The position numbers and the translations under genes were made by a program. From the IMG/VR virus record IMGVR_UViG_2690316286_000019, positions 1 through 11,459 of that record: DNA of 11,459 nt. One strand, written 5' to 3'. This document shows, piece after piece, positions 8,386-9,133 of the stretch. How positions within the stretch are numbered: the first letter of the stretch is position 1; every line of letters starts with the position of its first letter. This DNA is from a virus (taxonomy: Duplodnaviria > Heunggongvirae > Uroviricota > Caudoviricetes). The notes below the pieces were generated by a model that was not told where the DNA came from, ran no database searches, and saw nothing but the letters and a program-made list of their open reading frames with translations.

Positions 8386-9133
8386 TTATTTTAAGGAAAG
8401 CAACTGCTCTACGGTCATGTTTTTAATTGCGCCCCGGTTTACAAGAGTCCAGCCCTGTTTTTCCAGATAAAACCGGAAAGTCTCCAGGGTACAGACCAGT
8501 GCGCCATCAGGAACGGTTTCGGTGAATTCGACATTGCCGAATTTGTCGAAGTGAACAACCAGAGTGCGACCATCACCCGGAATCATCTTGTCAGCAGGTG
8601 GGGTGTTATTCTGGCGCAGTTCGACCTCCATGCGGTCGAACTCAGCAATGTAGGCTTCCTTGAATGAGGCGGCTTTTTTGCCAGTGAAGCCCATCACCAG
8701 GAAAACGAAGCCGTTTTTGGTGATTTGGTACATGGGGAGTTTGCGTCCGGTTGAGTCGGTATATTCGCTCGCCTCAAAATTGAGGGCAGTAAATTTATCT
8801 GAGNTTATTCTGGCGCAGTTCGGCCTCCATGCGGTCGAACTCAGCAATGTAGGCTTCTTTGAATGCAGCGGCTTTTTTGCCAGTGAAGCCCATAACCAGG
8901 AAAACGAAGCCGTTTTTGGTGATTTGGTACATTGGGAGTTTGCGCCCGATTGAGTCGGTGTATTCGCTCGCTTCAAAATTGAGGGCAGTAAATTTATCTG
9001 AGCATTCAATATTTGCGATGGCACGTAACACATTGTCGTGTCGTTTGTGGAAGAACTCTGCAACCGCAACAGACGTAGTGACAGCGCGACCGTTTTCTAC
9101 GGTTACACAAGGGTGAGAAAGGGTAGTAGCCAT
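8386..9133 (-). CDS. Phage regulatory protein, Rha family; reading frame interrupted as assembled (N at 8804 at the junction of a 198-bp tandem duplication)
   Basis: MATTLSHPCVTVENGRAVTTSVAVAEFFHKRHDNVLRAIANIEC... is a typical Rha-domain N-terminus (FxKRHDNVLR); strong GGAGG Shine-Dalgarno upstream of the ATG at 9131-9133. The track splits it into ORFs 8795..9427 and 8386..9069 because 198 bp + 1 N + 198 bp shifts the frame. Confidence 0.65.
8606..9002. repeat. Direct tandem duplication, 2 x 198 bp, separated by a single N (8804)
   Basis: 8606-8803 and 8805-9002 align colinearly with about ten mismatches (about 95% identity), from ttattctggcgcag... to ...aaatttatctgag. Confidence 0.9.

Follow-up and report, generated by a model that had tools for sequence, protein, structure and literature searches.

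The Rha locus and its repeat

The DNA analysed here, which we call the window, is a stretch of 11,459 nt taken from the IMG/VR virus record IMGVR_UViG_2690316286_000019 (Caudoviricetes). It carries a gene of the Rha family of phage regulators on the minus strand. In its scaffolded form the gene occupies 8386-9427 (1042 nt) and is broken at a single N, and as written it is spread over two open reading frames, 8795-9427 and 8386-9069. Removing one copy of an internal repeat restores the real Rha gene of 843 nt, which encodes 280 aa. When this single-copy reconstruction was compared with Pfam, the gathering scores used as cut-offs were exceeded by two domains: an N-terminal Ash domain (PF10554) at residues 14-104 (E 3e-17, 63.6 bits, cut-off 26) and Phage_pRha (PF09669) at residues 117-201 (E 2e-31, 108.7 bits, cut-off 29.9). 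The best E. coli match, in enteroinvasive (EIEC) strain CFSAN029787, is a RefSeq orthologue that is likewise 843 nt long and annotated as "Rha family phage regulatory protein"; its neighbours in a Rac-like prophage are ydaE on one side and ydfC/ydfB on the other. Downstream of Rha in the window is a YdaE-family gene (8088-8375, minus strand), which served as the anchor for finding related loci. The exact YdaE protein is present in many assemblies, and the Rha gene that adjoins it, where called, is single, encodes 184-283 aa and is never duplicated.

Within Rha, a block of 198 nt occurs twice in direct orientation, at 8606-8803 and again at 8805-9002; the two copies agree at 188 of 198 positions (95%) with no indels between them. 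The sole N of the repeat region, at 8804, stands exactly between the two. A first-pass annotation, made by reading the sequence alone, had picked out just such a repeat with an N at its joint and had put the number of differing positions at about ten; the repeat is there as described, and the count is exactly 10/198. The mismatches, given as copy 1/copy 2, fall at 8624/8823, 8659/8858, 8667/8866, 8668/8867, 8695/8894, 8734/8933, 8746/8945, 8750/8949, 8761/8960 and 8773/8972. The left contig (3850-8803) ends with the 198 nt of copy 1 (8606-8803, minus strand), which in gene orientation encodes Rha residues 143-208 before continuing into the Rha C-terminus (8386-8605). The right contig (8805-10638) opens with the 198 nt of copy 2 (8805-9002, minus strand), which runs uninterrupted into the N-terminal half of Rha (9003-9427). 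The repeated block corresponds to residues 143-208 of the 280-aa single-copy protein. The N at 8804, which is also in the public record L012, is a gap placeholder between the two contigs and not a genomic base.

With the N counted, the repeat period is 199 from start to start, not 198, and Rha is therefore frameshifted at the junction. The letters that meet at the joint are '...AAATTTATCTGAG' on one side of 8804 and 'TTATTCTGGCGCA...' on the other, and the junction with no base or one base at the joint is '...TTTATCTGAG-(0/1 base)-TTATTCTGGCG...'. The upstream Rha frame is broken at this point and reaches a stop three codons later ('...ELRQNXLR*'), and the rest of the gene lies in another frame; the frame would be kept across the junction only with no base in the place of the N. 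The interval 8500-9100 measures 601 bp as scaffolded and would measure about 402 bp with a single copy. The 115-aa open reading frame created downstream of the N is the only piece of Rha called in the gene list of the public record, and this product is recorded in this assembly only.

The source record and its other N sites

Positions 752-11459 of the window are the reverse complement of contig CXCS01000049.1 of assembly GCA_001260675.1, Ns included, and the two sequences end together. The window is therefore scaffolded draft sequence. The source organism is most likely Shigella sonnei. A protein look-up with the 646-aa RecE-like product of the window led to a single record, GCA_001260675.1 CXCS01000049.1. 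Four N sites are found in the window, namely single Ns at 614, 3849 and 8804 and a run of 21 Ns at 10639-10659, and every one of them is a meeting place of repeated or paralogous sequence. A gapless suffix/prefix match like that at 8804 was not found around 614, 3849 or 10639-10659, and the joins therefore differ in kind: one is a residual gap of a single base, one joins a hybrid and one is a gap left unclosed.

The N at 614 lies in the multi-copy constant region of ipaH and replaces exactly one base, with ipaH alignments crossing it at 99.6% over 255 nt, which amounts to one mismatch. The position is inside an ipaH open reading frame (521-1765, minus strand), in the part for the conserved C-terminus of an E3 ligase of the IpaH type, and this region is present in up to 12 copies per genome in EIEC or Shigella-like strains. 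The same open reading frame contains a 60-nt tandem array at 1217-1456 (about 3.5-4 copies, 62-85% identity). This array may encode the leucine-rich repeats, 20 residues each, in the N-terminal domain of IpaH, and would then be nothing unusual. The segment 570-2341, comprising ipaH and about 570 nt beside it, is missing from the S. sonnei contig L013 (GCA_019512625.1), which is colinear apart from this and in which 416-569 abuts 2342 onward; the absence may reflect either a strain difference (an ipaH island beside the prophage integrase) or a further effect of scaffolding through ipaH repeats.

The single-N join at 3849 has an Exc-Int module on its left and xisR onward on its right. The left side (int and Exc, 2342-3848, with an Exc-like open reading frame at 3546-3842) is 99% like an L013-type prophage, and the right side (3850-5938, with xisR at 3850-4060) is 100% identical to the xisR-type S. 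sonnei prophage of L015, which is the complete chromosome CP061367.1, labelled S. sonnei. In 1926 complete E. coli genomes the match begins immediately past this N, and not one of the 5426 complete genomes of the species has a match across it. On these alignments, 3849 is probably a hybrid or mis-join. By alignment coordinates against L015, xisR is cut about 29 nt short of its stop at this position.

The 21-N run (10639-10659) lies at the end of an IS1 copy, whose InsA and InsB genes occupy 9936-10633, and represents an unclosed scaffold gap; its flanks, 9881-10638 and 10661-11459, map to separate places in L015. The IS1 copy and the gap are bracketed by a second direct repeat, of 145 nt and 99% identity (9492-9636 and 10661-10805), which looks like more paralogous sequence within one scaffold. 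In L015 the counterparts of 8805-9642 and 10661-11459 overlap each other within the region upstream of Rha, and another S. sonnei locus, L017, carries this upstream region twice.

Single Ns are also found in or beside the Rha loci of L016 (CXDK01; positions 143, 6154 and 8705), L017 (FTVF01; 1388 and 3296) and L018 (FUCU01; 3007). In L017, one N is flanked by an IS1 copy and by a fragment of Rha whose end falls within the 198-nt block. No overlap-type repeat was found around the Ns of these three loci. From the style of the record names, we infer that L016-L018 share a source or pipeline with the window record.

Two copies, two alleles

The two copies compare very differently with the single-copy gene of L013, whose contig has no Ns. 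Positions 8805-9456, which begin with copy 2, show 0/652 mismatches to that gene, and copy 2 itself is identical at 198/198 positions to four independent S. sonnei loci (L013, L015, L017 and L018). A single-copy protein with the copy-2 residues exists exactly in the form of P0122, which is labelled Shigella sonnei and is encoded by the one copy in the L013 contig. A single-copy protein with the consensus core likewise exists exactly, as P0121, in 260 contigs. The isoleucine variant of copy 2 (EYTDSIGRK) occurs only in S. sonnei-labelled entries among those listed. As far as these identities reach, the right-hand contig is a carrier of the ordinary S. sonnei Rha allele.

Copy 1 carries all of the differences, 10/198, when set against the single-copy S. 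sonnei allele of L013 and L015. The left contig (4086-8803) matches L013 at 99.0%, and 10 of its 46 mismatches are packed into copy 1. With L013 as the reference throughout, the divergence of copy 1 (10/198) differs from that of the right part (0/652; Fisher P = 4e-7) and from that of the adjacent left flank (4/942; P = 1e-5). A duplication followed by later divergence cannot, on this comparison, fit a pattern in which one copy is identical to a relative, the other lies 5% away and the flanks are nearly unchanged.

The character of the ten differences is also informative. Seven of them are synonymous, against an expectation of 21% under random change (P = 0.0012), and eight are found in other natural Rha alleles. 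The copy-1 variants match alleles of the L010/L002 type or the L001/L008 type save at 8624 and 8667, which are private and non-synonymous. In gene orientation the first 30 or so nt of copy 1 resemble L001/L008 and copy 2, and the remainder resembles L010/L002, with three of the variants belonging to the L010/L002 allele. Across 4087-8803, a comparison of 12 related haplotypes gave 159 variable sites, and at only 3 of them does the window have a base of its own. Measured against the consensus allele of L001/L007/L008, each copy shows five differences. Judged by these matches, copy 1 is a different natural allele and not a diverged daughter of copy 2. Searches of complete E. coli genomes gave no exact counterpart of the copy-1 allele, the best match reaching 97.5-98.3%, and in phage records the best match is 90% over part of copy 1. 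A 42-mer specific to copy 1 is absent from the genome_contigs and metagenome_contigs collections, and a single-copy protein with the copy-1 residues (T, S, V), along with all mixed combinations, is absent from the protein collection. An L010-type prophage was considered as the true source of 3850-8803 and set aside; at about 99% identity and 42 mismatches, it is no closer overall than the other references.

Searches for the duplication elsewhere

A megablast query comprising window positions 8300-9450 (1151 nt) was run against complete E. coli genomes, with places covering at least 80% of the query counted. Such a place was found in 351 complete genomes. Among the 25 genomes listed, the genomic span for the full 1151-nt query is about 952-960 nt and never about 1151 nt, with shorter spans where the match begins at about query position 100. 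The listed E. coli genomes therefore have one copy. Independent S. sonnei assemblies, including the N-free contig L013 and the complete chromosome L015, also have a single copy. At the protein level, a 346-aa in-frame duplicate was searched against 5.8 billion protein clusters and gave 4046 matches; the best 120 are 272-320 aa long, and none of these 120 is a Rha of about 346 aa. The exact 346-aa duplicate is absent from a collection of 15 billion proteins. Two forms of the junction sequence, one joined directly and one with a single base between the halves, gave no match in genome_contigs (species-representative genomes) or metagenome_contigs (JGI).

Several Rha genes can occur together in such genomes. 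EIEC genomes have up to four places each that match the 8300-9450 query. Among the S. sonnei loci, L016 and L018 have two Rha genes on each single contig, and L017 has extra partial copies. At least two related prophage backbones occur in S. sonnei, one of the L013 type (int-exc...recE-ydaE-rha) and one of the L015 type (xisR...gam...IS...dicB-rha). Many S. sonnei-labelled Rha entries are marked "partial" and end at residues 152-220, so S. sonnei contigs habitually break in or just after the 198-nt block. Elsewhere in the contig 3850-8803, the recE gene (5752-7692) alternates between blocks of the L013 type (33 sites) and the L015 type (21 sites), with two private sites, and the 646-aa RecE product of the window is present in no other assembly. 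This mosaic may be a collapsed-paralogue consensus or a natural recombinant.

Origin of the repeat

Taken together, these comparisons make it very probable that the 198-bp repeat is a false duplication introduced by scaffolding or gap filling of a short-read draft. What was found is an N between the copies in a scaffolded draft, a single copy in the relatives and two versions of the block that are not a daughter pair. The left contig, up to 8803, holds xisR...recE-ydaE and the C-terminal half of Rha, and the right contig, from 8805, holds the N-terminal half of Rha, its upstream region and IS1. Both contig ends would reach through one conserved Rha core, each following a different allele among the Rha-bearing lambdoid prophage remnants of what is probably one Shigella sonnei genome. 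The ends would therefore mismatch, as they do at 10/198 positions, and would have failed to merge and been abutted with a one-letter placeholder N. The real genome would have one copy of the block per Rha gene, with the end of the left contig belonging to the other allele. This is in essence the reading that the first-pass annotation had preferred, a scaffold join of contig ends from paralogous Rha genes, and the Ns of the draft, the single copy elsewhere, the identity of copy 2 and the existence of paralogues all speak for it.

SSPACE and GapFiller would leave exactly one N after a failed merge. Our best guess for the software step is an extension in the style of these programs that would have proceeded from both gap edges without closure. 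A literature search for the one-N convention after a failed merge returned nothing relevant. GapFiller is described as extending both gap edges one nucleotide at a time by majority voting and as closing a gap only when the two edges meet in an overlap and the inserted sequence agrees with the size estimate; repeats are noted to stay open, and contig ends are noted to be error-prone (PMC3446322). The high-throughput pipeline of the Sanger Institute combines Velvet, SSPACE and GapFiller and covered 299 S. sonnei isolates, and its authors state that greedy tools of this sort can make false joins (PMC5320598). Warnings about repeats and false joins appear in both papers (PMC3446322, PMC5320598). 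The assembly GCA_001260675.1 was not found in the supplement of the pipeline paper (PMC5320598).

Could the repeat be real? A genuine tandem partial duplication (198/199 bp) of the Rha core would make the N an uncalled base and Rha a frameshifted pseudogene. The copies are adjacent and perfectly in register, each is open in its own frame with differences that are mostly synonymous, and the IS-rich prophage remnants of Shigella do rearrange, as the context of L015 illustrates. Against this stand the placement of the N exactly at the joint of a scaffolded draft whose other Ns mark joins, the occurrence of the structure in a single assembly across the searched collections of genes, proteins and DNA, the frameshift at the junction and the contrast between copy 2 with its flank (0/652) and copy 1 (10/198) in distance from the single-copy relative. 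We therefore consider a real duplication very unlikely, and we give the same small chance to a particular route to it, such as illegitimate recombination between Rha paralogues that belong to separate prophage remnants. Homologous exchange between paralogues would yield a hybrid single copy and no duplication. The first-pass annotation was right to call the copies too diverged for a fresh duplication, given 10/198 between them as against 0/652 and 4/942 for the flanks relative to L013. Its alternative of an in-frame duplication of 66 codons fared worse. The period of 199 shifts the frame, and the structure is absent from the protein and DNA collections searched; a determined in-frame junction, copies no more diverged than their flanks and a second record with the structure were not found.

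Two variants of the artefact are, in our estimate, less probable even than a real duplication. In one, an overlap at a single locus went unmerged with no paralogue involved, and the ten differences are base-calling or consensus errors at low-coverage contig ends. Such ends are error-prone (PMC3446322), the equal distance of five positions from each copy to the L001/L007/L008 consensus could be read in this way, and the two private copy-1 changes are non-synonymous. Random errors would hardly be synonymous in seven of ten cases (P = 0.0012), and copy 2, at 198/198 to four independent S. sonnei loci, is error-free; three of the copy-1 variants belong to the L010/L002 allele, and indels are lacking. 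Random contig-end errors were rejected as the source of the differences on the strength of the synonymous bias and the exact match of copy 2 to a known allele. In the other variant, to which we assign an equally slight probability, the artefact arose in the same way and the alleles came from two strains in a mixed or contaminated sample, not from two prophages of one genome. The block mosaic of two haplotypes in recE within 3850-8803, with its unique RecE product, could point to such a mixture, but collapsed paralogues would do likewise. Single S. sonnei genomes already hold several Rha-bearing remnants and both haplotype families, and therefore a second strain is not needed; nothing else in the window points to contamination. 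The two alleles are thus taken to have come from one genome and not from a mixed sample.

With the false duplication as the preferred reading, the consequences concern the record more than the phage. The scaffold join would make part of a phage regulator gene seem to be gained and would put a spurious frameshift into it, and gene callers have split Rha at this place. The neighbouring single-N joins show a wider pattern, in which the 11-kb stretch would be a patchwork of contigs that come from two or more paralogous prophages. The gene order, the alleles and the prophage boundaries in this record should not serve as evidence of biology; across 614, 3849, 8804 and 10639 neither order nor alleles can be relied on, and single Ns in drafts of this kind should be treated as contig joins and not as ambiguous bases. 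The importance of the repeat is that of a data-quality warning only, since it would be an ordinary artefact and not a real feature.

Comparison with known systems

In vertebrate drafts, false duplications with an assembly gap between the copies have been described as a class (Ko et al. 2022, Genome Biol 23:205, PMC9516828). The window shares with them near-identical adjacent copies, a gap character between the copies and an origin in unmerged versions of one sequence, as well as the outcome, in which part of a gene is falsely gained and the gene model is broken. In the vertebrate drafts the versions are diploid haplotypes or the products of sequencing errors, whereas here, in a haploid bacterium, they are most likely paralogous prophage genes. 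The scale differs as well, with kilobases in the vertebrate cases and 198 bp here, and the likeness drawn here is one of sequence comparison; the vertebrate study also has read-depth and discordant-pair criteria. With unclosed gaps of the SSPACE/GapFiller type, the window has in common the single residual Ns seen in similar assemblies at the same loci.

The gene beneath the artefact also has a clear counterpart in Rha proteins with an Ash domain from Rac-like and lambdoid prophages, exemplified by WP_000935587.1 of E. coli CFSAN029787. Both combine PF10554 with PF09669, and both are placed in the region from ydaE to ydfB/ydfC/DUF1391, downstream of recE-gam. The single-copy reconstruction equals the database proteins P0121/P0122, as in ordinary family members, and once the artefact is removed there is no biological difference between the Rha of the window and the WP_000935587.1 type.
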